DNA of 64,000 nucleotides, taken from Candidatus Omnitrophota bacterium. Lineage in GTDB: Bacteria; Omnitrophota; Gorgyraeia; Gygaellales; JAHJCI01. The stretch is taken from assembly GCA_016783355.1 (NCBI GenBank), contig JADHWR010000001.1, forward strand, positions 6,072-70,071. Direction: 5' to 3'. Within the stretch, counting starts at the first letter, position 1; every line of letters starts with the position of its first letter. The translations under genes were made by a program, and so were the position numbers. Below the pieces are notes generated by a model. That model worked only from the letters and a program-made list of their open reading frames with translations, did not search any database and was not told the DNA's origin. Below, one piece after another: positions 15,673 to 45,378 of this stretch.

Positions 15673-16326
15673 TTATTCTAAGGCCTTTAAAAGCTCCTCA
15701 CCGAACTCTTTAGCTGCAAATGGACCAGCGGCAGTAATAATATTGCCATCTCTTACTACAGCTCCCCCTGTATAGTTAGCTCCTGCTTGTTGTAACTTCC
15801 CTGCTTCACTTGACCAAACAGTGGCAGATTTACCTTTAAGTAAGCCTGCCTTCGCCAGGATTACAGGAGCAATACAAATTGCGCCAACGATTTTATTTGC
15901 GGCAGAGGCATCCAATGCAATCTTATGGGCTTTGGCATTATCCCAATAAACGCTTGCACCACTGCCACCTATAAAAACCACAGCATCAAAATCAAAAGGA
16001 CTTAGCTCTTCAATCGTTAAATCAGGCTTTATTTTTGCTCCTAACATGCCCTGGGCATAATCTTGCGTAAAAGCAGCAACCTTAACTTCACAGCCTGCAT
16101 CCTCTAAAACCTGTTTGGGAATAAGTAGCTCTTCATCTCTGAAATTTTTCTGCGCAATAATCATCACTACTTTTTTCATCTCTTGGCCTCCTGCCTGCCC
16201 CGTTAGAAACTTTGTTTTTAACGGGGCCTGCGCCCAAACAACCTTTAAGAAAAAGGCACAAAAAAATCCAACCATTAAGCAAAAAACTGTTGTCCATTTC
16301 TGAAGTAGAACAAGATTCTTATTCAA
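15673..16326 (-). CDS. DJ-1/PfpI family protein (N-terminal hydrophobic extension; alternative start at MKKVVMII)
   Basis: Has the DJ-1 core VMIIAQKNFRDEEL and the nucleophile-elbow-like AICIAP. The N-terminal 50 aa contain the 29-bp TIR element. Confidence 0.8.
   Translation of the reverse strand: MNKNLVLLQKWTTVFCLMVGFFCAFFLKVVWAQAPLKTKFLTGQAGGQEMKKVVMIIAQKNFRDEELLIPKQVLEDAGCEVKVAAFTQDYAQGMLGAKIKPDLTIEELSPFDFDAVVFIGGSGASVYWDNAKAHKIALDASAANKIVGAICIAPVILAKAGLLKGKSATVWSSEAGKLQQAGANYTGGAVVRDGNIITAAGPFAAKEFGEELLKALE
16198..16226. mobile_element. 29-bp minimal TIR element (CCCCGTTAGAAAC-ttt-GTTTTTAACGGGG) flanked by cctg/cctg
   Basis: The sequence reads cctg|ccccgttagaaactttgtttttaacgggg|cctg. 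It translates as PLKTKFLTG inside the DJ-1 ORF. Confidence 0.7.
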
Positions 16327-17389
16327 CGCGCTTTTTCGTAATTAAATTGTAGGTCTTGCAGGCAATCATTAATTCCTCATTTGTTGCCACAACTAAAATT
16401 TTTGGTATTTCTTTAAAATAAGAAAAGAGGTCTTGGCAGATTTTTTCTCGAAGATTAGCCTCATTTTCACCTATGCCTGCGGTAAATATTACTGCATCGC
16501 AACCACCCATAATCCCTGCGTAGGCACTAATATACTTTCTGATACGATAAACAAAAACATCAATTGCCAAACGTGCGCGTTTGTTGCCATTTTGGGCTTC
16601 CTTTTCTATGATGCGCATATCATTGCTCAGGCCGGAAATTCCCTTTAATCCACTTTTTTTATTGAGAACATTTTCTACCTTTTTGCTATCCCAATGTCTT
16701 TCATGTTGCAAATAAGTAATTATTGCCGGGTCAATATCCCCGCAGCGTGTACCCATAATTAAACCCTCTAATGGCGTAAAACCCATACTTGTATCAATGA
16801 CCTTACCAAACTTTATTGCGGTGATACTACAACCATTGCCTAAATGACAGGTAATCAGCTTTAATTTTGCCAAAGACCGGCCTAATCTCCTCGCTGCCTC
16901 CTGGGCAACATACTCATGACTCGATCCGTGAAAACCATATCTTCTTATTGCATACTGCTGATAAAAGCGATAAGGCAAACCGTAGATATAGGCGTATTCT
17001 GGCAATGTTTGATGATAAGCAGTATCAAAAACAGCGACCTGAGGAACAGCACCCATTAGTTTCTTACAAGCACGGACACCAGCTAAATTTGCTGGATTAT
17101 GCAAAGGTGCAAGCAAACAACAACGCCGGATATCAAGAATAACCTCCTTGTTAATCAAAACCGGCTTTTTAAACTGCTCGCCACCGTGAACAACACGATG
17201 ACCAATACCGTCAACCTTGTGTTTAATCGAAGATAAAACCACCTTAAGCCCGGCGTAATGATTCTTTGTCTTTGCGTCCTTTTCTCCAATATGGTCGATT
17301 AGACCTCTTTCTAATACCTCTTGCTTAGGCATGGAAAAGAGCTCATATTTAATAGAAGAGCTGCCACAATTAATAACCAAAATATTCAT
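16319..17389 (-). CDS. ackA: acetate kinase
   Basis: MNILVINCGSSSIKYELF is the AckA N-terminus. The likely start is the 12th codon (17389), which forms an ATGA overlap with the pta stop. Confidence 0.9.
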   Translation of the reverse strand: MNILVINCGSSSIKYELFSMPKQEVLERGLIDHIGEKDAKTKNHYAGLKVVLSSIKHKVDGIGHRVVHGGEQFKKPVLINKEVILDIRRCCLLAPLHNPANLAGVRACKKLMGAVPQVAVFDTAYHQTLPEYAYIYGLPYRFYQQYAIRRYGFHGSSHEYVAQEAARRLGRSLAKLKLITCHLGNGCSITAIKFGKVIDTSMGFTPLEGLIMGTRCGDIDPAIITYLQHERHWDSKKVENVLNKKSGLKGISGLSNDMRIIEKEAQNGNKRARLAIDVFVYRIRKYISAYAGIMGGCDAVIFTAGIGENEANLREKICQDLFSYFKEIPKILVVATNEELMIACKTYNLITKKRVE

Positions 17390-18321
17390 TTTTGTGCCCG
17401 TATTGCTGTTACTGCCACACAATCAACAATATCTTCAACACTACAACTACGCGAAAGATCAGAACACGGCCTTTTCAGACCCAAAAGCAAGGGTCCTAAT
17501 GCACGAGCTCGAGCTAAACGCTGCACCAATTTATAACTAATGTTTCCTGCTTCTAAATCAGGAAAGATAAGTACGTTTGCCCTTCCGGCTAAAACCTTAT
17601 CTGCCTGTTTTATACGCGCAAACTCAGGGATGATTGCTGCATCAACCTGCAGCTCTCCATCAATTAAAAGTTGTGGTCTTATCGAACAAGCAATATTTAG
17701 TGCCTCTTTTATCCGATCAATCTCCCAGCCACTTGCTGAATTTTTAGTAGAATAACTTAAGAAAGCCACTCGTGGCTCTATAGCCAGAACCTTCTCGGTG
17801 AATTGCGCTGCTTCTATTGCAATATAGGCAAGCTGCTCAGGGCTTGGTTGAGGAATAATGCCGCAGTCCGCAAAAACAAAAACTCCCTCTTCGCCGTAAG
17901 AGCAATTTGGCACAATCATAACAAAGCAACTTGAGGCAATACCCATTTGCTCATCAATTCCTAAACAGTGAATTGCTGCCCGGGCAACCTCTGAAGTTGA
18001 ATGAGAAGCACCCGCAACAAAGCCATCTGCTTGCGCCTCTCTAACCATCATTGCTGCATAATAGAGTAGCGAAGATAGTGCTTTGCGGCTGTCTTCAAGG
18101 CTATCCCCCTTAGCTTTACGCAAAGAAAAAAAATCCTCTGTATATCTTTTTTGCTTTTCTTTATCAATATTCTCTGGTGTTAAAAGACAAATCTTGGCAA
18201 TCCCTTCTTTTTCAATAATCTGCGCTGCCTGCTTTACCCGCTGATCATCATATTCAGGCAGAACAATCCTCTTTCTTGTTGCTTTCGCACGTTCTCTTAT
18301 CTTGCTAATTATATCAGACAT
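17386..18321 (-). CDS. pta: phosphate acetyltransferase (short, PTA-PTB domain only)
   Basis: 311 aa. Has IVLPE..D.RV..AA, the SHST..V.RAA-like motif and LLLG...P..DLSR.CS...I. Confidence 0.88.
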   Translation of the reverse strand: MSDIISKIRERAKATRKRIVLPEYDDQRVKQAAQIIEKEGIAKICLLTPENIDKEKQKRYTEDFFSLRKAKGDSLEDSRKALSSLLYYAAMMVREAQADGFVAGASHSTSEVARAAIHCLGIDEQMGIASSCFVMIVPNCSYGEEGVFVFADCGIIPQPSPEQLAYIAIEAAQFTEKVLAIEPRVAFLSYSTKNSASGWEIDRIKEALNIACSIRPQLLIDGELQVDAAIIPEFARIKQADKVLAGRANVLIFPDLEAGNISYKLVQRLARARALGPLLLGLKRPCSDLSRSCSVEDIVDCVAVTAIRAQK

Positions 18322-18384
18322 AATTACTTAAGATACTATAGATTTTATCTATATGCAAGCAAGAAAATCACTTCGTGATATCTT

Positions 18385-19005
18385 TTATCCTTTTATCTTC
18401 CTCATAAACTGCTTGAGCTTAATCGGGTCTTTCTTGCCCGGATATATCTCAAGCGAGCTTGAGGCATCTATCCACTGAGGATGAACAATCTCTATTGCCC
18501 TTTTTATATTGTCGGGGTTAAGTCCGCCAGAAAGAAACAGGCACTTGCCTGTCACCCTAAAAAAACCTTTGAGGGCCTGCCAATTAAATGTCTTGCCTGT
18601 TCCGCCAAATTGACAAGGAGTGAAACTATCAAATAAGTATGCCCACACATCTTTATATTTAAATATGCTTTTGGGTTTTATTTTATCTTTTATGCGAAAT
18701 GCCTTGATTACTTTATAATCCTTAAAACAAGAGCAGAATTCGGCAGATTCTTTTCCATGGAATTGCAAGACATCTAATTTTAGGTCTTTAGCAATCCTCC
18801 TAATTGTTGACTTTCGTGTATTCACAAATACTCCAATTCTTAATATCCTGCGGGGTAGCTTTTGTAAAATCTGTTTTGCTTTGACAGGATTTATATAGCG
18901 TGGGCTCTTTCTGTAAAAGATAAAACCCAGAGCATCTGCGCCAAACTTAGTGGCGCTTAAGGCATCTTCTAAGTTGGTTATTCCGCAAATCTTAACCTTT
19001 GTCAT
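18385..19005 (-). CDS. trpF: phosphoribosylanthranilate isomerase
   Basis: MTKVKICGIT...A...GADALGFIF motif. The start is taken at the internal Met; the ORF-track N-terminal extension overlaps trpC. Confidence 0.88.
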   Translation of the reverse strand: MTKVKICGITNLEDALSATKFGADALGFIFYRKSPRYINPVKAKQILQKLPRRILRIGVFVNTRKSTIRRIAKDLKLDVLQFHGKESAEFCSCFKDYKVIKAFRIKDKIKPKSIFKYKDVWAYLFDSFTPCQFGGTGKTFNWQALKGFFRVTGKCLFLSGGLNPDNIKRAIEIVHPQWIDASSSLEIYPGKKDPIKLKQFMRKIKG

Positions 19006-19018
19006 GGATGGAAGGTGG

Positions 19019-19804
19019 TCAGACTCTAAAGATTTCCTGAATCTTTGACTTGATATCTTCGGCAGCCATAAATGTCTCACCAATTAAAACAGCTTTTACC
19101 CCTAAGACTTTTAGGAATAATATATCCTGATGGCTCTTAATTCCGCTCTCAATAACGACAATCTTTCCGCTGGGAACAAGAGGAAATAACCTTTCCACAG
19201 TCCGCGGGTCCATCTCCAGGGTATGTAAATTGCGGTTATTTATCCCAATCAAGTCTGCGCCTGCCTTCAGTGCCTTTTTTAAATCCTTTTCTGAACTTAC
19301 CTCAACAAGGCAGTCTAAATTGAGGTCCTTTGCTAATCCGAGAAACTCTCCCAATAAAGCCTGCGGTAATAAATCGGCAATTAAGAGTATTGCATCAGCG
19401 CCAAATGCCCTTGATTCATAAATCTGATAAGGGTCAAAGATGAAGTCTTTTCTTAAGAGAGGTAAATCTACGGTATCGCGTATCTGACTGAGATAATTTA
19501 TATCACCTTGAAAATAATCCTCCTCTGTTAAAACAGATATACAAGAGACGCCAGCCTCTTCATAGATCAAGGCAATCTCTTTTGCATCAAAATCTTTACG
19601 GATAAGCCCTGCACTGGGAGAGGCCTTTTTGATTTCAGCAATAAGGGATAATTTGTGGGGTTTATTTATCGCCTTAATAAATGGTCGCCGCGGCCCAGAA
19701 TTCCTGGCTCTTGCTAATAACTCATTTTCCTTAATCGCAAGTTTAGCCTGAGTAAGTCTTTCCCTTTTCTTGGCAACAATTTCATAGAGAATATCTTTTT
19801 TCAT
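19019..19804 (-). CDS. trpC: indole-3-glycerol phosphate synthase
   Basis: 261 aa. Has IAEIKKASPS.G.I and SVLTEE..F.G....L...R. The KDFI-type motif is present. Confidence 0.92.
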   Translation of the reverse strand: MKKDILYEIVAKKRERLTQAKLAIKENELLARARNSGPRRPFIKAINKPHKLSLIAEIKKASPSAGLIRKDFDAKEIALIYEEAGVSCISVLTEEDYFQGDINYLSQIRDTVDLPLLRKDFIFDPYQIYESRAFGADAILLIADLLPQALLGEFLGLAKDLNLDCLVEVSSEKDLKKALKAGADLIGINNRNLHTLEMDPRTVERLFPLVPSGKIVVIESGIKSHQDILFLKVLGVKAVLIGETFMAAEDIKSKIQEIFRV

Positions 19805-19807
19805 CTT

Positions 19808-20896: not shown

Positions 20897-21456
20897 AGCT
20901 TTAAAAAGTTTCCTAGGATATCCTTACCAACCTTTGTCAATATTGACTCAGGATGAAATTGCACACCCCATAGAGGAAATTTGCGGTGTTTTAGAGCCAT
21001 AATCTCTTTATCTTTTGTCCGGGCAATCACCTTCAAGACACGAGGTAAGTTCTTATTACTTACGCTCAAAGAATGATACCGCGTCGCCTCAAAAGGAGAG
21101 GGAATATTCTTAAAGATATCCTTGCCATTATGGAAAATTTGTGAGGTTTTTCCGTGCATCAGTCTCCTTGCCTGCACAATCTTTGCTCCAAAAACATATC
21201 CTAAGCATTGATGGCCAAGACAGACTCCTAAAACAGGAATTTTACCGGCAAATTCTTTAATTAGATGAGTCGATATCCCCGCATTTTCTGGTCTTCCTGG
21301 ACCAGGAGAGATAACAATCTGCTGAGGTTTCAGTTGTCTAATCTGTGTTATGCTAATTTTGTCATTTCTAAATACCCTTAATCTTGCGCCCAGCTCGCCC
21401 AGGTATTGAACAAGATTATAGGTAAAGGAGTCGTAGTTGTCAATTACTAATATCAA
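20893..21456 (-). CDS. trpG: anthranilate/aminodeoxychorismate synthase glutamine amidotransferase component
   Basis: 187 aa. Has MILVIDNYDSFTYNLVQYL, the catalytic GVCLGHQ and the FHPES triad. Confidence 0.93.
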   Translation of the reverse strand: MILVIDNYDSFTYNLVQYLGELGARLRVFRNDKISITQIRQLKPQQIVISPGPGRPENAGISTHLIKEFAGKIPVLGVCLGHQCLGYVFGAKIVQARRLMHGKTSQIFHNGKDIFKNIPSPFEATRYHSLSVSNKNLPRVLKVIARTKDKEIMALKHRKFPLWGVQFHPESILTKVGKDILGNFLKL

Positions 21457-23529: not shown

Positions 23530-24575
23530 CCTTCGATTCCTTTCAGTAAGGCATCGGAAATCCTATCCAAATCTCCATCCAGGATTGCTTCTAATTTATG
23601 GAGGGTTAAACCAATGCGATGGTCTGTCACGCGCTGACCAGGAAAATTATATGTGCGAATCTTCTCACTGCGTTCACCACTGCCCACCTGAGTTTTTCTT
23701 TCGGAAGAACGCAAACGTGCAGTCTTCTCTTTCTCTTTCTGGAGGAGCCTCGCTCTTAATACCCTTAAGGCCTTATTTTTGTTTTTTAACTGCGAGCGTT
23801 CATCCTGGCAAGTAACAACAATGCCTGAAAACAGGTGAGTAATCCTTACTGCTGAGTCGGTAGTATTTACGCTCTGACCGCCATGACCCCTGGAGCGGAA
23901 AACATCAATCTTTAAATCATCAGGTTTAATCTCTAATTCTATCTCCTTGGGCTCTTCCAAAACAACAACTGTTGCCGTAGAGGTGTGAATACGGCCGCCT
24001 GTTTCTGTCTGAGGGATGCGCTGAACACGATGAACACCACTTTCCCATTTAAGCCGATCATAGACTCCCCTCCCACGCACAGAAAATATAATCTCTTTAA
24101 ACCCTCCTAATTCTGTAGGATGAGATGAAAGTATCTCCACCGCCCAGCTTTTCTTGAGTGCATATTTCGTATACATTCGGTATAGATCTGCGCTAAACAG
24201 CCCTGCTTCATCGCCTCCTGTTCCTGCACGTATCTCTATAATAATATTTTTCTCTATCTTCTCTTTCTCTTTCTCCTGCAGCGAATCATTGAGTTTAGAT
24301 AAGCAATGCTGGTTTTTTTTCTCTAAATCTTCGATCTCGGAATTTATCAAAGAAAGAAACTCAGGTTCATGTTTCTCCCGAAGAAGATTAATAAGCTTTG
24401 AAATCTCTTTTTTTCTTTTTTTATATTCCCGAAAAAGATACACTATGGGAGAAAGAAGACTTAACTCTTTTGCATAAAGATTGTAGCTTTGGCGATCCGC
24501 AATCACCTCATGGCTACTCATTAATTGCTCTAATTCTTCGTAGCGCTTTTCTATCTCCTCAAATTTTTTATTCAT
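23526..24575 (-). CDS. prfA: peptide chain release factor 1
   Basis: 349 aa. Has the GGQ motif ([21 protein letters not shown]) and a PxT-type tripeptide region (RIPQTE). Confidence 0.94.
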
Positions 24576-24777
24576 TTACTTTCTTTTTATATTTCTTCAT
24601 AAATTTCTCGACCCTCCCTGCAGAATCAAGAAATTTCTGCTTACCTGTAAAAAACGGATGACAGGCAGAACAAACCTCCACATGAATACTTGGTTTTGTC
24701 GAACGGGTATGTATGGTATTACCGCAAGAACAAACAATTGTACAATCTTGATATTTTGGATGAATCTTGTCTTTCAT
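24568..24777 (-). CDS. rpmE: 50S ribosomal protein L31
   Basis: 69 aa. Has MK..IHP.Y...I.CSCG and [14 protein letters not shown]. Confidence 0.93.
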
Positions 24778-26267: not shown

Positions 26268-26913
26268 TTAAAACATCCCAAATCATCTTAACCTGTTTTT
26301 TTGTCTCAGATTTCGTCCCACTATTATCAATAACAAAATCAGCTAAATTTAGCTTCTTTTTTAATGGCATCTGCAAATTTATGCGCTTTTTAATTTCCGA
26401 AAGGCAAAATCCCTTTTTTTTAAGGCGCAATTTTTGAATGTCTGACCTTGCCCTTACGGCAATTATCTTATCCACGATTCTCGCCAGTCCTGCTTCGATT
26501 AATAAGGGTGCATCAATTATAATAAACTTAAAATTTCGGGCCTGCTGAATCTGTATTTTAATTTCCTTAATTATTCCTGGATGCAGAATTTCGTTGAGCT
26601 TCTTTAGGGAATGCTTATTTCTGAAAGCACTCTTAGCTAACCTTTTTCGATTAATCTGTTGATTCCTGGAAAGTATCCTTTCCCCAAATGCCGCAAGAAC
26701 CCGCCTGTAAGCCCCGTTCGAAGTAAGGCGCCCAAGGCGACTGCCCCGCCAAATTCCGTGGCGGGGACTTCTAACGGGGTAAGCCTTTTTCTTGGGCTCG
26801 ATTAACTGATGCGCAATCCTATCTGCATCAATAATCTGAGCGCCTAATTGTTTAAAATAGTGCGCGCACGTCGTCTTCCCTGTGCCAAAACTGCCGGTAA
26901 TACCAACAATCAT
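26227..26913 (-). CDS. coaE: dephospho-CoA kinase, carrying a 24-codon element insertion
   Basis: [15 protein letters not shown] has the P-loop at the likely start (26913, an ATGA overlap with the glgA stop). The [11 protein letters not shown] and LHP-type motifs are present. Confidence 0.88.
26712..26779. mobile_element. 68-bp TIR element in frame inside coaE, flanked by taag/taag
   Basis: The sequence reads taag|ccccgttcgaagt aaggcgcccaaggcgactg ccccgccaaattccgtggcgggg acttctaacgggg|taag. It encodes [23 protein letters not shown]. Confidence 0.85.
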
Positions 26914-28295: not shown

Positions 28296-30964
28296 TTAAT
28301 CTCCTCCATCTCTAACCAATTCTTACCCTTCTTTATTACTACCTTTATGGGAACAGAAAGGGCTAAGGCATTCTCCATCTCATAAGATATCATCTCAATT
28401 GCCCTCTGCAATTGCCCGTTCGGTATCTCAAAAATAAGTTCATCGTGAATTTGCAGGAGGAGCTTCGCCGAAAGCGTTCTTTCCTCAATCTTCTGATATA
28501 TCTTAATCATCGCCATCTTAATTAAATCTGCTGCCGAGCCTTGGATGGATGAATTTACTGCCTGCCTTTCGGCAAATGCACGAACTGCGGCATTCTGATG
28601 ATTAATGTCAGGGAGATAGCGATGGCGACCTAAAATAGTTGTTACAAAATTGTCTTTTTTTGCCTTTTCAATCTGCCTGGCGATATAATCTTTTACTCTG
28701 GGATACCTTAAAAAATAGGCATCAATAAAGCGAGTTGCCTCCTCCCTTGAAATTCCTAATTCCCTTGCTAAACCAAAGGAAGATAGACCATAAATAATTC
28801 CAAAATTTATGCGCTTTGCTACTTCTCGCATCTGATCATTGACAATAGAATCCTCTGTGCCATAAACTAAAGAGGCAGTGGCACGATGTATGTCTTTGCC
28901 TTGCGAAAAAGCATCAATCAGCACCTTCTCGCCTGATAAATGTGCCAGAACCCTTAATTCTACCTGAGAATAATCAAAAGAGACCAAAAAATTATCCTCG
29001 CAACTCGTGATGAAAGCCTTTCGTATCTTGCGCCCTAACTCTGTCTTAATCGGTAGATTTTGCAAATTAGGATTAGAGGAGCTCAGTCTTCCCGTCTGTG
29101 TTCCTGTTTGATTGAAGAATGTATGAATGCGCAGGGTTTTTTTATCTGCCAGTTCCATTAAGGCATCGATATAAGTAGATTTTATTTTACAAAGCATACG
29201 ATATTCCAATAAAATTTTTGGTAAGGGATGCTGGCTTGCTAAGACAGCAAGAACCTCCTCATCGGTAGAGGCGCCTGTCTTTTTCTTTTTTATCACCGGC
29301 AGTTTTAATTTCTCAAAAAGAACCTGACGTAGCTGTAAGGGTGAGTTGATATTAAACGGCCCACCAGCAAGATGATAAATTTTACTGACCAGGCCTTTGC
29401 GCTTTTCTTCAATTTCAATGCCCAAGGCTTTAAGAAACTCTAAATCAAGCTTTATACCCTCTAATTCCATCTGCGCTAAAACAGGAATCAAGCGAATCTC
29501 TAAGTCGCAAAAGATGCGAAAGCTATCTTTAAGCTTTAGTTCTTTCTCTAAAACCGACTTAAGTGTTCCAATAACAACACAAACCTCAAGTGGACTTATC
29601 TTTCCTGCCCCGTTCGAAGTCCCCGCCGTAGGCGGGGCAGTCGCCCCGGGCGTCTTACTTCGAACGGGGCCTGCATCCAAAATTCTCTTCAGATAATCCC
29701 AGCACAGGCTCTCAAGACTATAATCAGACCGGGACGGATTCAAAAGATAAGCAGCAATCATCGTATCAAAACCTAACCCTTCTAGGGCGATATTATGCCG
29801 GGCTAATCGCAAAAAGATATCTTTTAGATTGTGGCCGATTTTCTTAATCTTTGGGTCTCTAAGGACAGGTTCAATGCTCTTTAAGGAGCCTTTCTCTAAT
29901 TCTAAAAAAGAATCACTCTCTGGAAGATAAACTGTCAACCCCTCCTCATTCATATAGAGAATCAACTCACCTGCCTGCCTAAACTGATCAATCCCGGCAA
30001 CCTGCCTGTTGGCACTTCGACGGAGTTTATCCCGAGCGAAGTCGAGGGACTCAGTGCTAGCACTCCGACTTCGCTCAGTGCCAACCCTGAGCTTGTCGAA
30101 GGGTTGCTCAGGTAAATCTTTAAGAAATTTTTTAAATTCTAACTCACGAAAGATTTCATAAAGATTTCTATAGTCAGGCTTCTTTATCTTTAAACTTTGC
30201 GCATCAAATTCTATATCTAAATCTGTCCTTAATTGTGCAAGATAATGACATAGTTTTATTTGCTCAATCTTTTCTTTCAAGCGAGAACGAAGCTTTTGTT
30301 CTTTTATCTGATCCAAATTCAATAAGAGATTTTCCAGAGACTTAAATTTATCCAGGAGCTTGGTGGCGGTCTTTTCTCCTATGCCAGGAACACCCGGGAT
30401 ATTATCAGCTGTATCTCCGGCAAGAGCAATAAAGTCAGCAATTCTGCCGGGTAAAAATCCGTATTGGCGCTTAACCCCTGCCACATCATAAATTATCTTT
30501 TTGTCTTTATGAGGATGCAGAACAATAACTCCCTCATCCACTAATTGCAAGATATCCTTATCAGCGCTGACAATCATTATTGTAAAATCCTTCTCTTTTG
30601 CCTTCCTGGTTAATGTCGCAATAACATCGTCTGCTTCAAAGCCCTCCTTCTCAAATATATTAATTCCAAAGGCCTTGATTATCTTTTTAATGTAAGGCAG
30701 TTGAGTCACTAAATCCGCAGGCATAGGAGGACGTTGTATCTTGTAACGCGCAAATTCTTTTTGGCGAAATGTGTGCCTTGAGACATCAAAACATACACCC
30801 ATATACTGCGGATTTATCTCTTTTAAAACCTTATTCAGAAAATTCACAAAGCCATAAATAGCATTGGTACAAAGACCGTAAGAGGTCGCAAGCCCCCTTA
30901 TGGCATAATAGGCGCGGTAACAGATGCCGTTGGCATCAATAAGTACTACTTGGGCTTTATCCAT
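28292..30964 (-). CDS. polA: DNA polymerase I, carrying two different in-frame repeat insertions
   Basis: 890 aa. Has a 5' nuclease domain (GIPGVPGIGEKTA), pol motif A (SFDYSQVELRVLAH), motif B (RR.AK..NFGIIYG) and motif C (QIHDELIFE). Confidence 0.95.
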   Translation of the reverse strand: MDKAQVVLIDANGICYRAYYAIRGLATSYGLCTNAIYGFVNFLNKVLKEINPQYMGVCFDVSRHTFRQKEFARYKIQRPPMPADLVTQLPYIKKIIKAFGINIFEKEGFEADDVIATLTRKAKEKDFTIMIVSADKDILQLVDEGVIVLHPHKDKKIIYDVAGVKRQYGFLPGRIADFIALAGDTADNIPGVPGIGEKTATKLLDKFKSLENLLLNLDQIKEQKLRSRLKEKIEQIKLCHYLAQLRTDLDIEFDAQSLKIKKPDYRNLYEIFRELEFKKFLKDLPEQPFDKLRVGTERSRSASTESLDFARDKLRRSANRQVAGIDQFRQAGELILYMNEEGLTVYLPESDSFLELEKGSLKSIEPVLRDPKIKKIGHNLKDIFLRLARHNIALEGLGFDTMIAAYLLNPSRSDYSLESLCWDYLKRILDAGPVRSKTPGATAPPTAGTSNGAGKISPLEVCVVIGTLKSVLEKELKLKDSFRIFCDLEIRLIPVLAQMELEGIKLDLEFLKALGIEIEEKRKGLVSKIYHLAGGPFNINSPLQLRQVLFEKLKLPVIKKKKTGASTDEEVLAVLASQHPLPKILLEYRMLCKIKSTYIDALMELADKKTLRIHTFFNQTGTQTGRLSSSNPNLQNLPIKTELGRKIRKAFITSCEDNFLVSFDYSQVELRVLAHLSGEKVLIDAFSQGKDIHRATASLVYGTEDSIVNDQMREVAKRINFGIIYGLSSFGLARELGISREEATRFIDAYFLRYPRVKDYIARQIEKAKKDNFVTTILGRHRYLPDINHQNAAVRAFAERQAVNSSIQGSAADLIKMAMIKIYQKIEERTLSAKLLLQIHDELIFEIPNGQLQRAIEMISYEMENALALSVPIKVVIKKGKNWLEMEEIK
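29608..29669. mobile_element. 62-bp TIR element in frame inside polA, flanked by cctg/cctg
   Basis: The sequence reads cctg|ccccgttcgaagt ccccgccgtaggcgggg cagtcgccccgggcgtctt acttcgaacgggg|cctg. It encodes PVRSKTPGATAPPTAGTSNGA. Confidence 0.85.
30011..30108. repeat. Palindromic 'FDKLRV'-type repeat inserted in frame in polA
   Basis: It contains gagcgaagtcg...agtgctagcact...cgacttcgctc and accctgagcttgtcgaaggg. The same words occur in the tandem arrays at 31007-31200. It encodes PFDKLRVGTERSRSASTESLDFARDKLRRS. Confidence 0.75.
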
Positions 30965-31006: not shown

Positions 31007-31071
31007 CCTCGACTTCGTCCCTCGACTTCGTCCCTCGACTTCGTCCCTCGACTTCGTCCCTCGACTTCGCT
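31007..31071. repeat. 13-bp tandem repeat x5 (cctcgacttcgtc)
   Basis: Four perfect copies plus one variant, read directly from the sequence. Confidence 0.9.
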
Positions 31072-31200
31072 CGGGACGACCCTGAGCTTGTCGAAGGGTC
31101 GCTCGGGACGACCCTGAGCTTGTCGAAGGGTCGCTCGGGACGACCCTGAGCTTGTTGTCGAAGGGTCGCTCAGTGTCAATCCTGAGCTTGTCGAACGGAT
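31072..31200. repeat. 32-bp tandem repeat x3 plus a partial copy (cgggacgaccctgagcttgtcgaagggtcgct); each unit has a GACCCT...AGGGTC hairpin
   Basis: Units lie at 31072, 31104 and 31136 (the third has a 3-bp tgt insertion). A partial copy follows as cctgagcttgtcgaacgg. Confidence 0.9.
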
Positions 31201-31207: not shown

Positions 31208-32152
31208 TTAGTTTTTAGGGGTTAATTCCGTGGCTATCTTTTCTAAAGTCTGCTTTGCAGTTACAATATCATCCTGCTCATAGAATCTGATCGCATCTTG
31301 AAACTTGGCCTGCATAATAGCGATGTGTTCTTGTTTTTGTTTTTCTTTAATCTCTTTATTTATTTTATCTATTAAGGTCAAAAATGAGTCTCTGTCTGAC
31401 GGGTCCAAAGAAATGGCTAACACCAGTGCATTTTTTGCTTCCTCTATTTTGTGCTCTTCATATAAATCATCAGCCAGTTCCTTAAGTTTTTGAATCTCTT
31501 TTAACTCTGTTAATCTGACTGCCTTTTTATGAATGGCGAGCTCACGCACTAAACTAAGCGTCTCTTCCTCTATCAACTCCTGCTGAAGAGAAGGCTGAGT
31601 CTCTGCGATGGCCTGGCGTCTGCGTTTCGCCCACTCCACCCAAGACTCACCGGGAATTCCCAATTCTATACGTTTTTTCCAATAATCAAAAGCCTTCTTT
31701 AGTTCTCTTTTTTGCTCATAAAGCATAGCTAAATTTGAATATAAATTATGATACTGGGGATTTAATTTTAGTCCAACTAAATAAATCTTCTCTGCCCTAT
31801 CAAGTAAACCCTTGGCCTCAAACATAATTCCTAAATCATTGTAAGCAATAACATAAGCAGGGTCTAACTCAATTGCCTTCTGATAACAGACTGTGGCACT
31901 ATCTAAATCACCGCGCTGCTGAAACTGCAAACCTTGACTTCGAAGAAGACGTGCCTCTTTTTGAAAAGTAGTTTGTTTCTGCGCAAAAAGTGAGGTTGGG
32001 AAACAGAATAAGTTAATTGTTATAAATAAATTAATTGCTACAAAAGAGATAATTCCCTTTGTAAACCCCGTTCGAAATTCCTCCAATCTTTGCTTAAGGC
32101 TTAATGATACATAAGTAGCCGAGGCTTTTGAATCTATCTTAAATCTATGCAT
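31208..32152 (-). CDS. TPR-repeat protein with signal-peptide-like N-terminus; current start codon lies inside a TIR element
   Basis: TPR-like repeats (A...Y.KAIELDP..., NLG..FE..G....A...Y...L.L.P). The hydrophobic segment IISFVAINLFITINLFCFPTSLFA follows. Confidence 0.75.
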   Translation of the reverse strand: MHRFKIDSKASATYVSLSLKQRLEEFRTGFTKGIISFVAINLFITINLFCFPTSLFAQKQTTFQKEARLLRSQGLQFQQRGDLDSATVCYQKAIELDPAYVIAYNDLGIMFEAKGLLDRAEKIYLVGLKLNPQYHNLYSNLAMLYEQKRELKKAFDYWKKRIELGIPGESWVEWAKRRRQAIAETQPSLQQELIEEETLSLVRELAIHKKAVRLTELKEIQKLKELADDLYEEHKIEEAKNALVLAISLDPSDRDSFLTLIDKINKEIKEKQKQEHIAIMQAKFQDAIRFYEQDDIVTAKQTLEKIATELTPKN

Positions 32153-32171
32153 ATCTAAATTTCGAACGGGG
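32066..32171. mobile_element. 106-bp TIR element (no ORF of its own) inserted in the 5' end of the TPR gene, flanked by taaa/taaa
   Basis: The sequence reads taaa|ccccgttcgaaat...80 bp...atttcgaacgggg|taaa. It supplies the ATG (32152) and the first 29 codons of the present TPR ORF. Confidence 0.85.
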
Positions 32172-32433
32172 TAAACCCCGTTCGAAATAGGAAACGCTTT
32201 AATCTATCGTTCAAATAGCGTTTACCCTTTCCAGACTTCAGGTGTTTTTCTCTACTCATTGCATCATATTTATTTAGACAGGCTTCATAATAAATAAGCT
32301 TAAAGGGGCCTCTATTCTTAGTAGAAGACACCTTTCCTGAATTATGCTCACTAAAGCGTTTCCGTAAATCATTCGTTAAGCCTGTATACCATTTTTTATC
32401 TTTCTGGCTTTGAATTACATAAACATAATGCAT
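32155..32433 (-). CDS. small GIY-YIG nuclease family protein (YhbQ/UPF0213-like)
   Basis: 92 aa. MHYVYVIQS....WYTGLTNDL.KR..EHN.GK matches the GIY...YIG-type motifs (YVY / WYTG), a conserved Arg and E..HN. The C-terminal FRTGFTPFEI is encoded by the TIR junction. Confidence 0.85.
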   Translation of the reverse strand: MHYVYVIQSQKDKKWYTGLTNDLRKRFSEHNSGKVSSTKNRGPFKLIYYEACLNKYDAMSREKHLKSGKGKRYLNDRLKRFLFRTGFTPFEI

Positions 32434-32454
32434 TGCTTGTTATTTCGAACGGGG
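32176..32454. mobile_element. 279-bp TIR element whose cargo is the complete GIY-YIG gene, flanked by taaa/taaa
   Basis: The sequence reads taaa|ccccgttcgaaat...253 bp...atttcgaacgggg|taaa. The 13-bp TIR is perfect. The GIY-YIG ATG sits 8 nt inside the right TIR. Confidence 0.85.
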
Positions 32455-32511
32455 TAAATTGAGGCATCTTGATTTTAAGATACATTAAAAAAGCAAAAAG
32501 TCAAGAAAATA

Positions 32512-39168: not shown

Positions 39169-39282
39169 AGTGTAAGGTGTAAAGCGAAAGGCGTAAAACT
39201 AATGTCTAAAGTTCAAAGTTTTTTTAAGAAAGTTTTGAGTTTTTAGTTTCAGTTTTGCGCTTTACGCCTTGCGCTTTGCACT
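39169..39282. repeat. Inverted pair of heptamer-periodic arrays (GTGTAAG GTGTAAA GCGAAAG GCGTAAA ... inverted partner) in the tgt-trmD spacer
   Basis: The left arm is 39169-39199 and the right arm 39252-39282. They are about 23/31 complementary, and most mismatches allow G-U pairing in RNA. Confidence 0.7.
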
Positions 39283-40440
<1,158 letters not shown>

Positions 40441-40531
40441 TCAGCGGAGGGAAAATAGCCAAAATATAAATGAAAGAATAATGCTTAATAATATGCAGGA
40501 AGCGACAGGAAAATAAAAACTAAAATTTTTC

Positions 40532-41623
40532 TTAAAGAAACTCCTCTTGTTTTTCTCTGTGATAAGGCAAACCTAGTCGCTTATATGCCATCTCTGTTGC
40601 CATCCGACCCCGTGCTGTTCGCTTTAAATATCCTGCCTTTAAAAGATAGGGTTCGATCGTATCCATAATTGTCTGCCTATCCTCATTGAGACTTGCTGCT
40701 AATGCCTCTATGCCCACCGGCCCACCGGAATAAGTATCAATAATGATCCGTAAAAGGCGGCGGTCAATCTGATTAAGACCATTAGAATCAATACCCAATG
40801 CTTCTCTGGTCAACGTGACGAGATCTGCATCAATGACTTCTTTATTTTTTACTTGGGCGTAATCACGGACACGTCGCAGCATCCGATTGGCAATTCGTGG
40901 TGTTCCGCGACAACAGCGAGCAATCTCCATACTTGCTTCTTTCTCAATATTGATATCAAGCCTGTTTGCAGAATGGTGAATTATTAAAGATAAATCCTCT
41001 GGATTATAAAAATCAAGGTGGTAAAAAATTCCAAATCTACTGTGCAACGGTCCAGATAAAAGGCCTGCACGCGTCGTTGCACCGATTAAGGTAAAAGGCT
41101 TAAGATTGAATTTGATTGTCTTTGCATAGGGGCCTTTATCGATCAGAAAATCGATCTGAAAATTCTCCATTGCAGGATACAAAAATTCCTCCACTACTTT
41201 CGAGAGCCGGTGAATCTCATCAATAAACAAAATATCCCCTATTTCTAAATTGGTAAGAATCCCGATTAAATCTCCGGCACGTTCAATTGCCGGGCCTGCG
41301 GTAGCTGTAATCTTAGCCTGCATTGTCATCGTAATAACATGAGCGAGGCTGGTCTTGCCCAAACCAGGAGGACCGTTTAAAAGTATATGCTCTAATGGCT
41401 CTTTTCTCTGTTTTGCGGCTGCGATCACAACTTTAAGATTCTCAATAGTCTCCCCCTGCCCAACAAACTCAGCTAAACTACGTGGTCGAAGGCTAAGATT
41501 GAGGACATTATCTTCCTCTGTCTCCTTAAGATTAATGACTGACTTGTGTTGAGTCGGTTTGCCTTTCATCTTTCTCGTAAGGTAAAATATTGTTTGTATT
41601 GCGGGAAATCTTAATCTCCTCAA
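40532..41623 (-). CDS. ruvB: Holliday junction branch-migration helicase RuvB (start probably at MKGK, 41569)
   Basis: Has LRP..L.EFVGQ, Walker A GPPGLGKTSLA, Walker B LFIDEIHRL and TRAGLLS.PL.SRFG. Confidence 0.94.
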   Translation of the reverse strand: MRRLRFPAIQTIFYLTRKMKGKPTQHKSVINLKETEEDNVLNLSLRPRSLAEFVGQGETIENLKVVIAAAKQRKEPLEHILLNGPPGLGKTSLAHVITMTMQAKITATAGPAIERAGDLIGILTNLEIGDILFIDEIHRLSKVVEEFLYPAMENFQIDFLIDKGPYAKTIKFNLKPFTLIGATTRAGLLSGPLHSRFGIFYHLDFYNPEDLSLIIHHSANRLDINIEKEASMEIARCCRGTPRIANRMLRRVRDYAQVKNKEVIDADLVTLTREALGIDSNGLNQIDRRLLRIIIDTYSGGPVGIEALAASLNEDRQTIMDTIEPYLLKAGYLKRTARGRMATEMAYKRLGLPYHREKQEEFL

Positions 41624-42296
41624 ATAGCCGGTTTTGATAAATCACTATCTCTTTAAGGCGGATCAATTCAAGAACAGCTAAAAATATAGAAATTATCTCT
41701 AATTTATTCTTTGCTGATTGGAAAAGTTGATTTAAAACAATGAGATCTTGCTTAAGTAAAAAATGAAGAATCTCATGTATCTTTGCCTCCACGCTAAATT
41801 CATCTCTGACAACCTCATAAAATAAATCCTTAGGCACTTCACGCAAAGCTTCTGTGAATGCACAAATTAAATCAAATACCGATGCTTCAAAATATGGTTC
41901 TTTCCCTTCCTCTTTATGGGGTATTTGATGTGCCCGTCTTGTAAACTGAAGATCTCTTGCTTTTTCTCTCTCCCCTAAATGCTGGGCAACTTCTTTAAAC
42001 TTCTCATATTCCAATAACTTCTCTACTAATTCCTGGCGCGGGTCCATTTCATCCTTAATTTCCTCTTTCTTTGCCTGTGGAAGCAGCATCCGTGATTTAA
42101 TCTGTGTAAGCGTTGCTGCCATAACGAGAAACTCGCCCGCAATATTTAAATCCAAAAGGCGCATTAAATCTAAATATTCTAAATACTGCTGGGTTATTCT
42201 TGCGATGGGAATATCGTAGATGTTGATATGGTCTTTTTTTACTAAATAAAAAAGTAAATCCAAAGGACCTTCGAATATCTCAAGCTTAATTCTCAT
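41532..42296 (-). CDS. scpA: segregation and condensation protein A
   Basis: 254 aa. Has FEGPLDLLFYLVKK..I.IYDIPIA.IT.QYL.YL. Confidence 0.88.
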   Translation of the reverse strand: MRIKLEIFEGPLDLLFYLVKKDHINIYDIPIARITQQYLEYLDLMRLLDLNIAGEFLVMAATLTQIKSRMLLPQAKKEEIKDEMDPRQELVEKLLEYEKFKEVAQHLGEREKARDLQFTRRAHQIPHKEEGKEPYFEASVFDLICAFTEALREVPKDLFYEVVRDEFSVEAKIHEILHFLLKQDLIVLNQLFQSAKNKLEIISIFLAVLELIRLKEIVIYQNRLFEEIKISRNTNNILPYEKDERQTDSTQVSH

Positions 42297-42297
42297 C

Positions 42298-43281
42298 TCA
42301 CCACAGCCCTACCTTCTCTTTAACAGCGGCTAAAGTTTTCTCCGTAATAGGACGGACTGCCACTGCTCCCTTTTGAAGGATAGAATCAATCTGGCCTGAG
42401 TCCTCCATTAATTTCTGATAACGGGATTGTAAAGGCCGCAAATGCTCAATGATTACCTCTATCAACTCTTTTTTCAAAGCAACATAGCCTTTACCTTCGA
42501 ATCGGCGTTCTATATCTGGCCTGGGGTATTTGGTGAAGAGTTCATAAATAACCAAAAGGTTATAAATTCCTGGCCGGCTCTGATCAAAATGAATATCACG
42601 GCCTGAATCTGTAACGGCAGCCATAATCTTTGCCCGAATCTGATCAGGTGAATCAAGTAAATAAATTGCATGACCGAAACGCTCTTTGCTCTTACTCATC
42701 TTCTTTGTGGGCTCATCCAATCCCATAATACGTGCCCCTACTTCGGGAATAAGCACTTCCGGAATTTTAAAGGTTGGGCCATATATTGAGTTAAACCGCT
42801 TGGCAATATCCCGGGCAAACTCTACATGCTGCTTCTGGTCTTCTCCGACAGGAACTAAGTCTGTTTCGTAAAGCAGAATATCGGCAGCCATAAGAACAGG
42901 GTAATCAAAAAGACCAGTACTAACTTCATTTTTACACTCCTTTGATTTCTCTTTAAACTGTGTCATGCGATTCAACCACCCCATCGGAGTAAAACAGTTC
43001 AGGATCCAAGCAAGCTGTGCGTGTGCACTAACCTGAGATTGGACGAACACGAAGGATTTTTGGGGATCGATGCCGGAAGCTATAAGAAGAGCAGCTAATT
43101 GCCGTATCTGTCTTTTTAAAATCCTGGGATCCTGGTAAATAGTAATTGCGTGCAGGTCAACAATGCAAAAGATATTCTCAAATTCATCCTGCCGCAGCAC
43201 CCAATTTTGAACTGCTGCCAGGTAATTGCCAATGTGAATGTTACCTGTTGGTTGTATTCCAGAAAGTACTCGTTTTCTCAT
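42298..43281 (-). CDS. trpS: tryptophan--tRNA ligase
   Basis: 327 aa. Has SGIQPTG..HIGNY (HIGH) and KMSKS (KKMSKS). Confidence 0.94.
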   Translation of the reverse strand: MRKRVLSGIQPTGNIHIGNYLAAVQNWVLRQDEFENIFCIVDLHAITIYQDPRILKRQIRQLAALLIASGIDPQKSFVFVQSQVSAHAQLAWILNCFTPMGWLNRMTQFKEKSKECKNEVSTGLFDYPVLMAADILLYETDLVPVGEDQKQHVEFARDIAKRFNSIYGPTFKIPEVLIPEVGARIMGLDEPTKKMSKSKERFGHAIYLLDSPDQIRAKIMAAVTDSGRDIHFDQSRPGIYNLLVIYELFTKYPRPDIERRFEGKGYVALKKELIEVIIEHLRPLQSRYQKLMEDSGQIDSILQKGAVAVRPITEKTLAAVKEKVGLW

Positions 43282-43287
43282 TATTTT

Positions 43288-45378
43288 CTATAGTTTTCTT
43301 GCTATCTTCTCAATTTTATAGCCTTCCATTATATCGCCTATTTTATAATCAGAAAAATTACCTATGGATATGCCGCACTCATAACCTTCAGATACCTGAG
43401 AAACCTCATCTTTAAAACGCCGAAGATTGCTAATCTTTCCGCTAAAGATAGTAGTGTTGTCTCTGATTATATCTATATTGAGCGTGCGCAAGATCTTACC
43501 CTTAGTTATAGTACACCCCGCCACAACACCACTTCGCGAGAGATTAAAAACCTGCTTCACGCGTGCCTGTCCAAAAGATACCTTTTTTATCTTTGGGCTT
43601 AACAACCCTTCTAAAGCCGCCTTTATCTCCTCGACTAATTCATAAATTATATTGTATGTCCTTACCTCCACCTGCTCTTTTTTAATTAATTCCTTTGCTC
43701 GCTCTTCTATATTTATATGAAAACCCAAGATTAGCGCATCAGAGACAGACGCCAGCATTACATCTGAAGTGTTAATTAAGCCCACTCCTTTATGGGTTAT
43801 CTTAAATTTTACCTCTTTTGTCTCTAATTTTATTAGAGAATCCCGCACCGCCTCTAATGAGCCGAATGTGTCTGCTTTAATAATAATCTTCAGCTCTTTA
43901 AGAACACCGTTTTTTATTTCCTGATGTAAATCCTCCAGCGAAAACCGATGTGGTGAAATATTCCTTTTTTCCTTTGTCTCGCGCAGCGAGATAAGTGCTC
44001 TTGCCCCTTTCTCGTCCTTGACAACAAAAAATCTCTCTCCTGCCTCAGGCACGGATTCAAAACCTAAAATTCCCACAGGCTGACTGGCAGTAGCTTCCTC
44101 AACTCTCTGGCCACAGTCATTAAATATTGCCTTTACCTTTGCTAAGTTCTTCCCCGCAACAAGTAGATCATTAAGATGTAATTTTCCATTCTGCACCAAT
44201 AAAGTTGCCAGAGGACCCCTGTTTGGGTCCTGTCTTGCCTCAATAACAACACCCCTTGCTATCTGATTATAATCTGCTTTCAATTCTAACATTTCTGCCT
44301 CTAAAAGAATCATCTCTAATAATTCATCTATGCCCTGACCGGTTTTGGCAGAAACCTCTACCGTTACGGTCTTGCCTTGCCACTCCTCAGGAACTAAACC
44401 AATATCAGCAAGTTGCTTCTTTACCCTATCTACGTTAGCCTGAACTCGATCAACTTTATTTATGGCGACAATTATAGGAACCTCAGCATCTCGGGCATGG
44501 TTAATTGCCTCAATTGTCTGAGGCATAACACCATCATCAGCAGCAACCACTAAAACAACAATATCTGTAATCTGTGCGCCCCGTGCACGCATTGCCGTAA
44601 ATGCCTCATGACCGGGTGTATCCAAAAATGCAATCTTACCCTTATCTAAATTAACCTCATATGCACCGATGTGCTGGGTTATGCCTCCATGTTCAAAATC
44701 AACGACCTTTGTCTTTCTAATCATATCCAAAAGGGAGGTCTTACCATGGTCAACATGACCCATAAATGTTACTACGGGTGGACGAACATTTAAATCCTGA
44801 GGCTGGCTTGATACCTCATGTAAGGAAAGCAGGCGTTCTTCTAAAGAGGGAGCCTGCTTGACTTTAAAGCCAAAATTCTCACAAACCTGCTCTACTTCAT
44901 CTTTTCCTAAAGATTGGTTAATGTTGGCTAGGATTTTTAACTTTAAAAGTTCCTGCATTAGCTGCGAGAGTTTAATTTGAAGCTTAACCGCTAAATTCTT
45001 AACAGAAATAGGGAAATCTAATTCTAATACCTTAGCTTGTGGCGCCTCTTCAACCAAAATTGCTTGTAGCTGCTGGGGTTGAGGCTCTAAGGTCTTTGCT
45101 TGAATTTTAGACTTGCGGGAGACTCTTCTCTTTGGTTTAGGGGCTATTTCTTTCCTCTTGATTTGCTTTTTGCCTGGCTCTTTTCGTAGGACCGCAGGCT
45201 TTTTTGCTTTCCTTGCCCCGTTTGAAATCCCTCGCCTAACGGCGGGGGCAGCTACCTTTGGTGTCTTACTTCGAACGGGGTTTGGCTTTGTAGAGGAAGC
45301 CCTTAAGCGAGTCTTTGAAGCCTTTCTCACTTTAGTTTTTAATGCTTTTGGTTTCTTAGGTTTTTTTATCTTTTTCAT
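43288..45378 (-). CDS. infB: translation initiation factor IF-2, carrying a 23-codon element insertion in the basic N-terminal region
   Basis: 696 aa. Has the G domain [21 protein letters not shown] and NKVD. Confidence 0.94.
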   Translation of the reverse strand: MKKIKKPKKPKALKTKVRKASKTRLRASSTKPNPVRSKTPKVAAPAVRRGISNGARKAKKPAVLRKEPGKKQIKRKEIAPKPKRRVSRKSKIQAKTLEPQPQQLQAILVEEAPQAKVLELDFPISVKNLAVKLQIKLSQLMQELLKLKILANINQSLGKDEVEQVCENFGFKVKQAPSLEERLLSLHEVSSQPQDLNVRPPVVTFMGHVDHGKTSLLDMIRKTKVVDFEHGGITQHIGAYEVNLDKGKIAFLDTPGHEAFTAMRARGAQITDIVVLVVAADDGVMPQTIEAINHARDAEVPIIVAINKVDRVQANVDRVKKQLADIGLVPEEWQGKTVTVEVSAKTGQGIDELLEMILLEAEMLELKADYNQIARGVVIEARQDPNRGPLATLLVQNGKLHLNDLLVAGKNLAKVKAIFNDCGQRVEEATASQPVGILGFESVPEAGERFFVVKDEKGARALISLRETKEKRNISPHRFSLEDLHQEIKNGVLKELKIIIKADTFGSLEAVRDSLIKLETKEVKFKITHKGVGLINTSDVMLASVSDALILGFHINIEERAKELIKKEQVEVRTYNIIYELVEEIKAALEGLLSPKIKKVSFGQARVKQVFNLSRSGVVAGCTITKGKILRTLNIDIIRDNTTIFSGKISNLRRFKDEVSQVSEGYECGISIGNFSDYKIGDIMEGYKIEKIARKL
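45216..45280. mobile_element. 65-bp TIR element in frame inside infB (flanks cttg / tttg)
   Basis: The sequence reads cttg|ccccgtttgaaat ccctcgcctaacggcggggg cagctacctttggtgtctt acttcgaacgggg|tttg. It encodes PVRSKTPKVAAPAVRRGISNGA. Confidence 0.8.

Follow-up and report, generated by a model that had tools for sequence, protein, structure and literature searches.

The stretch analysed here, a 64-kb window of a Candidatus Omnitrophota contig, contains seven elements bounded by terminal inverted repeats (TIRs) of the form CCCCGTTNGAA…TTCNAACGGGG, one of which carries a gene for a small GIY-YIG nuclease. The original prediction had listed seven such copies with 4-bp flanking duplications, and direct reading of the sequence bore out every one of them in position and sequence. 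At one mismatch or fewer, CCCCGTTNGAA was found 15 times in the window, with 14 of these matches forming the seven pairs; dinucleotide shuffles of the window produced a mean of 2.9 terminus matches and none of 100 reached 15, and a relaxed terminus search of the window returned no copies beyond the seven. The flanking 4-mers are identical for five of the seven copies and one base apart for the other two (P of at least 5/7 perfect flanks by chance ~4e-11). The seven repeats are real mobile DNA, comprising one 279-bp nuclease-coding element and six gene-less miniatures.

[quoted passage not shown] Their host genes were identified by Pfam and NCBIfam as encoding DJ-1/PfpI, CoaE, PolA, a TPR protein, TGT and IF-2. 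A 62-bp MITE in polA (29608..29669; TSD CCTG) encodes residues 432-453 (PVRSKTPGATAPPTAGTSNGA), a 68-bp MITE in coaE (26712..26779; TSD TAAG) adds ~24 residues, and a 65-bp MITE in the N-terminal region of infB (45216..45280; flanks CTTG/TTTG) encodes NPVRSKTPKVAAPAVRRGISNGA. Minimal copies of 29 bp are found in tgt (39867..39895; flanks CTTG/TTTG), where an 11-residue peptide results, and near the DJ-1/PfpI gene (16198..16226; TSD CCTG), ~20 nt upstream of the likely start codon. The sixth MITE, of 106 bp (32066..32171; TAAA flanks), adjoins the gene-bearing element. For the short copies previously assigned to open reading frames (ORFs), element length plus 4 gives 33, 72, 66, 33 and 69 bp, all multiples of three, and the in-frame copies encode the anticipated PVR…SNG(A) peptides. 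An internal module proposed for the 62-68-bp copies is likewise common to them and consists of two hairpins. The 29-bp element of tgt (CCCCGTTAGAAATATCATTTCTAACGGGG; window 39867-39895) was also observed, identical and in frame, in a different gene of a Doudnabacteria locus (L085 5766-5794).

Of the five copies thought to be intragenic and in frame, those in coaE, polA, tgt and infB are secure and are lineage-specific in-frame inserts. The fifth probably sits in the 5' leader of the DJ-1 gene, outside the coding sequence, because an AGGAGG-N8-ATG start (MKKVVMIIAQ) lies ~20 nt downstream of the copy and the Pfam domain begins only at that Met; gene callers are split on this protein (168 aa vs 200 aa). 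Alignment of the host proteins to orthologs, which could have revealed the segments as conserved ancestral sequence, gave no sign of this for TGT, CoaE or PolA. The TGT insert corresponds to a 9-residue gap in the alignment to the solved TGT 10fb; the ~24 residues of CoaE separate what are positions 40 and 44 in a solved homolog, are absent from 2if2 and 1vhl, and break the CoaE Pfam match in two; and the 22-residue PVRSKTPGATAPPTAGTSNGA of PolA is missing from 39/39 nearest orthologs. Three other Omnitrophota PolA proteins contain a similar peptide at positions 329 or 385, and these are therefore independent insertions. The expectation that inserts occupy surface loops was tested for PolA, with a loop as the outcome: in an AlphaFold model with a mean per-residue confidence score (pLDDT) of 85.5, only two segments fall below 50, and one of these, residues 431-454, is the element-encoded peptide, modelled as a coil joining two helices. 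The PolA insert is thus predicted to be a disordered loop.

At the TPR locus, two copies stand side by side. The 279-bp element (32176..32454, minus strand) has the termini CCCCGTTCGAAAT and ATTTCGAACGGGG, which form a perfect 13-nt inverted repeat, and is flanked by a TAAA duplication (32172-32175 and 32455-32458). The 106-bp copy had been reported within the TPR gene; it is indeed present there, and its position is more precisely defined, as both the 106-bp and the 279-bp copies are inserted in codon 4. The displaced original start (ATG CCT CAA TTTA; 32455..32467, minus strand) can be read directly from the sequence, and deleting both elements while keeping one TTTA restores ATG CCT CAA TTT ACA AAG…, encoding MPQFTKGIISFVAINLF…. 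The present TPR ORF uses an ATG (32152) inside the 106-bp copy, 3 nt past the nuclease stop codon; this MITE holds an outward-facing GGAGG and ATG, both used by host genes. For their expression the elements seem to rely on signals of the host, the 279-bp copy of the window being located just past the TPR start codon.

The nuclease ORF of the window (32155..32433, minus strand) comprises 92 aa plus stop, with residues 83-86 (FRTG) constituting the right terminus; it runs through the TSD into the 106-bp element and ends at a TAG. It matches PF01541 with 69.4 bits (cut-off 22.6, E 3.3e-19), and the catalytic residues Y3, Y5, Y16-T17-G18, R26, H30 and E50/E62 are present in columns that are invariant among homologs. 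An AlphaFold 2 model (pLDDT 87.5) presents a bare GIY-YIG core of the beta-beta-alpha-beta-alpha fold with a basic C-terminal helix, for which the closest folds are UPF0213 (1zg2, 1ywl), Slx1, HIGLE and I-TevI. The closest sequence relatives are stand-alone Slx1-like/UPF0213 proteins (BH0048 1zg2, EF2693 1ywl and the YhbQ type; E 1.7e-10), and together with the fold matches this places the nuclease in the Slx1/UPF0213 branch rather than the homing endonuclease/UvrC branch (PMC1564403). Dunin-Horkawicz et al. 2006 (PMC1564403) regard prokaryotic Slx1-like proteins as probable repair factors that are minimal and inherited vertically. The present protein is similar in being a minimal GIY-YIG core without accessory domains, and differs in that its subfamily is embedded in a TIR/TSD element and spread across phyla. 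Homologs of 65-79% identity were found in Omnitrophota, Patescibacteria, Scalinduaceae, Dehalococcoidia and many unbinned metagenome contigs, and in a profile search 14,560 cluster representatives reached E ≤ 1e-3, of which 3,341 reached E ≤ 1e-10. The gene is intact and under purifying selection, as shown by divergence of 0.25/0.17/0.53 at codon positions 1/2/3.

Direct evidence of mobility was obtained at prfA. Contig L233 stems from another sample of the same population, with 3 substitutions relative to the window over 7.6 kb. At the prfA start, L233 carries a 106-bp MITE (13727-13832) flanked by TGAA/TGAA and 92% identical to the 106-bp copy of the window, while the window has a single TGAA (24572..24575, minus strand) overlapping the start codon (A|TGAA). 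In the window, the empty site has the sequence …GTAA-A-TGAA-TAAAAAATTTGAGGAG, with ATGAAT… as the prfA start, and the filled site of L233 reads …TGAA[CCCCGTTAGAA…TTCGAACGGGA]TGAATAAAAAA, an exact 4-bp duplication in which the prfA ATG is rebuilt by the terminal A of the element and the duplicated TG. Repeat-driven misassembly does not explain this insertion, because both flanks adjoin in the empty allele. The MITE family is mobile with a 4-bp TSD, as the original prediction had claimed, and its mobility is recent; this is supported both by the filled/empty pair and by the census below. Near the left junction (L233 ~13710-13726, window ~24576-24590), two substitutions and a 1-nt indel occur within ~10 nt, the rest of the 7.6-kb alignment being almost free of differences; these may represent a repair scar or local strain divergence. 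An apparent empty site of the 279-bp copy in L233 was rejected as a scaffold gap of Ns, and other strain contigs, which cover window 3046-42477 and 49642-64000, displayed no further MITE polymorphism.

A paired-terminus scan over species-representative genomes yielded at least 120 loci of ~8 kb each, and among the matches listed 125 MITEs from more than 100 genomes formed the census set. These matches belong to Omnitrophota, many Patescibacteria lineages, Pirellulales, Phycisphaerae, Nitrospirota, Thermodesulfobacteriota, Desulfobacterota, Gammaproteobacteria, KSB1, Ratteibacteria and one metagenome-assembled genome of Aenigmatarchaeota (a DPANN archaeon); a few very short Bacteroidota and Clostridia matches may be chance hairpins. 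Flanking 4-mers proved to be duplicated well above chance, being identical in 70/125 copies against 9.5 expected from marginal frequencies (a ~sevenfold excess). Identical flanks drop to 2-3 for 3-mers and for 5-mers, and the duplication is therefore exactly 4 bp. The target rule is YNNR, which fits all 70 perfect duplications (background 23.5%); the YYTR preference suggested earlier turned out to be too narrow, fitting only 38/70. The base before the duplication is G in 32/70 and the base after it is C in 33/70. Within long ORFs lie 32 of the 125 copies (26%), of which 31 have a length that becomes divisible by three when 4 is added, compared with a 38/31/24 split by length modulo 3 for copies outside ORFs. 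The ORF copies are read as PVR…SNG in 25 cases and as PLE…LTG in six; the third frame of CCCCGTTAGAA contains a TAG, a stop that is abolished by the TTCGAA variant of the window. Assemblies break at element copies.

The elements fold into stable hairpins, which would suit conserved palindromic motifs (terminators, protein-binding sites) that never moved, with flanks alike by chance, or else the inserts could be ancestral protein segments. This non-mobile reading is refuted by the PolA orthologs that lack the insert and by the filled/empty pair at prfA, where the polymorphism includes a TSD; the excess of duplications and the absence of an Rfam family match at any element copy also oppose it, and we give it next to no credence. 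Folded singly, the copies have interiors that are not generally structured (median z -0.26). One MITE subfamily, present in at least six phyla, combines the TIR stem with two adjacent hairpins of 7-10 bp that have unrelated stem sequences; its members are window 26712-26779, 29608-29669 and 45216-45280 and loci L053, L071, L102, L131, L132 and L140. In an RNAalifold analysis of eight 62-68-bp copies, only the TIR stem was informative, as the internal hairpins were out of register in the alignment. Three further ideas were discarded or disfavoured. Viruses were rejected as main carriers, since MITEs occurred in only 10 viral stretches and no nuclease homolog was confirmed there. Palindromic targets behind the inverted-looking flanks were rejected because the outer 10 nt give 2.6-3.1/10 inverted matches, the random level. 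A sticky-end origin, with the 4-mer travelling with the element, is disfavoured by 106-bp relatives that carry TAAA vs TGAA.

The proposal that the 279-bp copy is a candidate autonomous member gained support from unrelated metagenomes, where inverted 11-nt termini (≤2 mismatches) surround the nuclease gene in 67/84 matches from 80 loci, 64 of the 67 being perfect. Upstream of the nuclease ATG, the left terminus is reached within 45 nt, the right terminus coincides with codons 83-86, and gene-bearing elements measure 272-293 bp with a mode of 279 bp. In nearly all of the best 120 protein homologs the C-terminus is …RLKRFL[SF]LTG, in which LTG is CTA-ACG-GGG, the right terminus in translation. 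Exactly 86 aa are found in 59 of these 120, as their stop is provided by a T(AA/GA)N target duplication; the remainder carry read-through tails that vary. The paired ends change together, as C…G, T…A, TCACGTT…AACGTGA, TCACGTACGAA…TTCGTACGTGA, ACCC…GGGT and GCCCGAACACTGG…CCAGTGTTCGGGC, and a 49%-identical nuclease homolog has diverged ends with a TATG duplication. The nearest protein neighbour has the same terminus type in 52/59 cases against ~32 expected. Gene and termini form one conserved, co-evolving unit. The right ends of MITEs (…GCGTCTTACTTCGAACGGGG) also resemble the 3' end of the nuclease gene (…GCGTTTCCTATTTCGAACGGGG). The architecture, TIRs and TSD around a gene, is that of an insertion sequence (IS), with the gene in the putative position of a transposase.

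This bond bears on whether the nuclease is a passenger in elements that owe their movement to a conventional transposase from another part of the genome, such as a DDE enzyme of the IS5- or IS1182-like type. TIRs with a fixed-length TSD are an established hallmark of DDE transposition, IS5- and IS1182-like families also make 4-bp duplications, GIY-YIG enzymes have no strand-transfer activity that we are aware of, and each genome was only partly sampled. On the other hand, essentially every homolog has its ORF overlapping the right terminus, terminus sequence and protein lineage vary together, and a passenger would not keep the same 11-bp ends in different phyla while its protein diverges to 65-79% identity. 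In the 279-bp element, GIY-YIG is the only Pfam match and no second ORF fits, leaving no DDE, DEDD, HUH, serine, tyrosine or Cas1 class enzyme. Across ~1 Mb of sampled loci plus the window, there was no transposase with the termini CCCCGTTAGA…TCTAACGGGG and no larger element with these ends; the ~250 termini found over ~1 Mb of loci pair within 400 bp, except for eight long-range pairs. A larger transposase-bearing element with shared ends was examined in these pairs and rejected, as they enclose RpoC, pseudopilin, efflux and sigma-factor genes. We therefore regard a conventional transposase as quite improbable.

A second alternative takes the nuclease to be a resident, largely vertically inherited gene that spreads or maintains short palindromes without itself transposing freely, in the manner of repetitive extragenic palindromes and their REP-associated tyrosine transposases (REP/RAYT), the repeats perhaps being co-opted as translation signals or mRNA structures. 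Several of the observations that favour it also count against a freely mobile nuclease element. Perfect flanks are found in only 6/41 C…G-type gene-bearing copies, a deficit that persists after collapsing loci with common neighbour genes, and many C…G copies without TSDs occupy conserved positions. An ORF6N-domain gene (PF10543) lies directly upstream in 16/80 gene-bearing loci and is common to 25/66 C…G-type loci (L143-L196). Three loci share an insertion upstream of tpiA whose termini are intact in each; two of them retain TAAA/TAAA flanks, and those of the third have decayed. The outward GGAGG and ATG of the 106-bp MITE serve host genes. Also counting against a freely mobile nuclease element, only two further nuclease homologs occurred in the at least 120 genome loci (~8 kb each), the copies in the window have diverged from one another, which makes the 279-bp copy no more than a candidate for activity, and GIY-YIG enzymes hydrolyse DNA. 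The role of mobiliser is deduced from sequence.

Set against this vertical scenario are gene-bearing copies with perfect and varied TSDs (TTTA, TAAA, TTTG, CTGG, TGAA, TGAG, TGGA and TATG), as well as the 279-bp copy of the window, which disrupts codon 4 of the TPR gene. In the T…A lineage (L155-L218, e.g. L179, L185 and L209), as in the polymorphic 106-bp MITE, insertions are found at A|TGAA start codons, and they affect many unrelated host genes. A genuine host ORF starts at -1 in 17/22 T…A copies, with the terminal A and the duplicated TG forming a host ATG that overlaps the TGA stop of the nuclease. A 659-bp contig (L005, sample ERZ24794679) contains two nuclease elements in tandem that share one common TTTA, which also speaks against a resident gene; the tandem reflects either a genuine insertion into a TSD or an assembly path that cycled through the repeat. 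On balance, a REP/RAYT-like resident gene seems unlikely to us. For the flank-mismatched C…G copies the upstream ORF6N gene offers a partial explanation: they may be old, retained insertions, or ORF6N may act as a partner protein or mark a favoured site of insertion. The ORF of this gene has …KRRIG[FL] as its end and continues into the left terminus; no ORF6N was found in 834 kb of MITE-only loci or in the window. An ORF6N::GIY-YIG fusion was rejected, as the nuclease frame is never open for ≥60 codons upstream and, at the commonest spacing of 21 nt, the terminus places a TAG in the nuclease frame.

The recurrence of the gene at the 3' end of ORF6N genes also resembles site-specific homing, and the best-known mobile GIY-YIG enzymes are homing endonucleases. 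In such a scheme the nuclease would cut one cognate empty site, the element would be copied by double-strand-break repair, and the short copies would be decayed remnants. Homing depends on long homologous flanks and does not generate a TSD, whereas exact 4-bp duplications are found here at many unrelated sites, and the prfA pair documents the recent insertion of a gene-less 106-bp copy. The protein also has no DNA-binding domain and reaches only 20 bits (cut-off 56) with the group I intron endonuclease model TIGR01453. Classical homing is accordingly very improbable. Compared with GIY-YIG homing endonucleases (I-TevI, I-BmoI and Seg proteins), the present nuclease shares the catalytic fold, a selfish lifestyle and, as far as its presumed cutting goes, a staggered cut at a loose short motif, and differs in its 86 aa, the absence of an intron or intein, its TIRs and TSDs, and its many sites.

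We consider it likely that these are very small TIR/TSD elements that move by a cut-or-copy process and consist of a 272-293-bp member, encoding an 86-residue GIY-YIG nuclease, and derived MITEs. The start of the gene lies ~20 nt inward of the left terminus; its four final codons (…[SF][LR]TG) double as the right terminus, and its stop usually comes from the duplicated target (TAAA, TGAA). The six other copies of the window (29-106 bp) would be internal-deletion MITEs that kept the termini and are presumably moved in trans by the nuclease. As a first step, the terminal palindrome would be recognised by the nuclease; nicks in both strands, offset by 4 nt, would then follow at purine^pyrimidine steps. 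Such steps are present at target sites, whose consensus is G|YNNR|C, and the consensus would reappear on either side of an inserted element, whose first base is C (or T) and whose last base is G (or A); therefore one enzyme could both cut targets and release elements. We know of no strand-transfer activity among GIY-YIG nucleases, and joining is therefore left to the host, whose ligase and polymerase would finish the reaction and produce the 4-bp YNNR duplication. Minimal copies of 25-33 bp with good TSDs exist; they are too short for synapsis of two separate duplex ends to be favoured, and recognition of a single palindrome or hairpin, which would suit a structure-selective nuclease of the Slx1 type, appears preferable. 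Insertions would persist where little harm results: in stop-free frames where length plus 4 is divisible by three, as disordered surface loops (PVR…SNG or PLE…LTG), as well as in leaders and, for the T…A lineage, at start codons where the host ATG is rebuilt.

Several known systems resemble parts of this arrangement. Like Rickettsia palindromic elements (RPEs), the copies are short palindromes inserted in frame in essential genes, tolerated as surface loops and variable between lineages. The comparison with RPEs made in the original prediction thus holds for behaviour and fails for family membership: there is no sequence relationship, an NCBIfam scan of four hosts (DJ-1, CoaE, TPR and TGT) returned no RPE model at E ≤ 0.001, and the present family spans many phyla instead of one genus and has 4-bp YNNR TSDs and a coding partner. 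To our knowledge, no mobilising enzyme has been described for RPEs. Pairs of MITEs and parent IS elements (IS630- and IS5-derived MITEs, Correia elements) likewise have TIRs, fixed TSDs and short copies that share ends with a coding copy, and the copies described here are in the same way small, non-coding, polymorphic in insertion and bounded by TIRs and a fixed TSD, with termini common to a coding copy. Here, by contrast, the coding copy is ~279 bp and its product is a GIY-YIG nuclease rather than an enzyme of DDE, HUH, serine or tyrosine type, the ORF extends over a terminus and obtains its stop from the target, and minimal copies measure 25-33 bp. REPtrons also pair one small nuclease-type gene between inverted palindromes with many dispersed palindrome copies; RAYT, however, is an HUH Y1 enzyme and REPs are extragenic and without TSD, in contrast to the GIY-YIG gene, TSDs and many intragenic copies seen here. 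We are not aware of a bacterial transposon class that uses a GIY-YIG enzyme. A full-text literature search, including the terminus sequence, found no prokaryotic TIR/TSD element built on a GIY-YIG gene, with subscription journals mostly outside its reach and an earlier description therefore possible.

Other repeats and features were noted in the window. A second repeat family with the motif TCCCGAGCGAAGTCGAGGGAC occurs at 30030-30087, 31012-31076 and ~31124-31155, and outside the window at L240 4455-4492; its copy inside polA overlaps a window-specific insert of ~24 residues with low pLDDT (288-321), a 13-bp tandem array lies upstream of polA, and a 32-bp indel is polymorphic between the window and L233. 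A third, intergenic family of ~80-120 bp (84-91% identity) is found at 12388-12470, 56930-57044 and 62977-63095, and several strain contigs end at its first copy. At 63384-63707 (minus strand; also L240 6603-7448), next to tRNA-Leu(tag) and tRNA-Gly(gcc), a tRNA gene is split by a group I intron (Rfam RF00028, 88 bits), with a LAGLIDADG_3 ORF just upstream that runs past the window end. The rpoB and rpoC genes are fused into a single ORF of 2466 residues (4580-11980, minus strand). Two adjacent, near-perfect palindromes of 24 nt (GCCCTGTACCATACGGTACAGGGC; 55746-55795) are unrelated to the TIR family.

The original interpretation is supported, and the result reaches further than it had proposed. 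The elements are best described as a TIR/TSD transposon with MITEs, with a substantial chance of constituting a new class by enzyme and mechanism. In its full form the proposal is bolder, and we hold it at slightly less than even odds: a new class of prokaryotic DNA transposon, and the smallest autonomous one known (~280 bp), in which a minimal Slx1-like GIY-YIG nuclease moves itself and its MITEs in the manner of a restriction enzyme, by nicks at R^Y steps staggered by 4 nt, the host supplying ligation and fill-in and no transposase strand transfer taking part, spread over many phyla and DPANN archaea and remodelling essential proteins in frame. If the nuclease does mobilise these elements, prokaryotic DNA transposition would gain GIY-YIG as a further enzyme type next to DDE, HUH, serine, tyrosine and Cas1, and the size minimum of an autonomous element would fall below 300 bp and to one 86-residue protein. 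A small nuclease with a defined terminal recognition sequence may also serve as a reagent. We know of no way of moving for in-frame palindromic elements such as RPEs and many orphan MITEs, and for one such group the nuclease provides a concrete, testable candidate enzyme. The elements also matter for genome work, being abundant in Omnitrophota, Patescibacteria, Planctomycetota, Nitrospirota and Desulfobacterota, where they break assemblies, add PVR…SNG or PLE…LTG peptides to proteins and split or re-create start codons, with consequences for gene calling and alignments.

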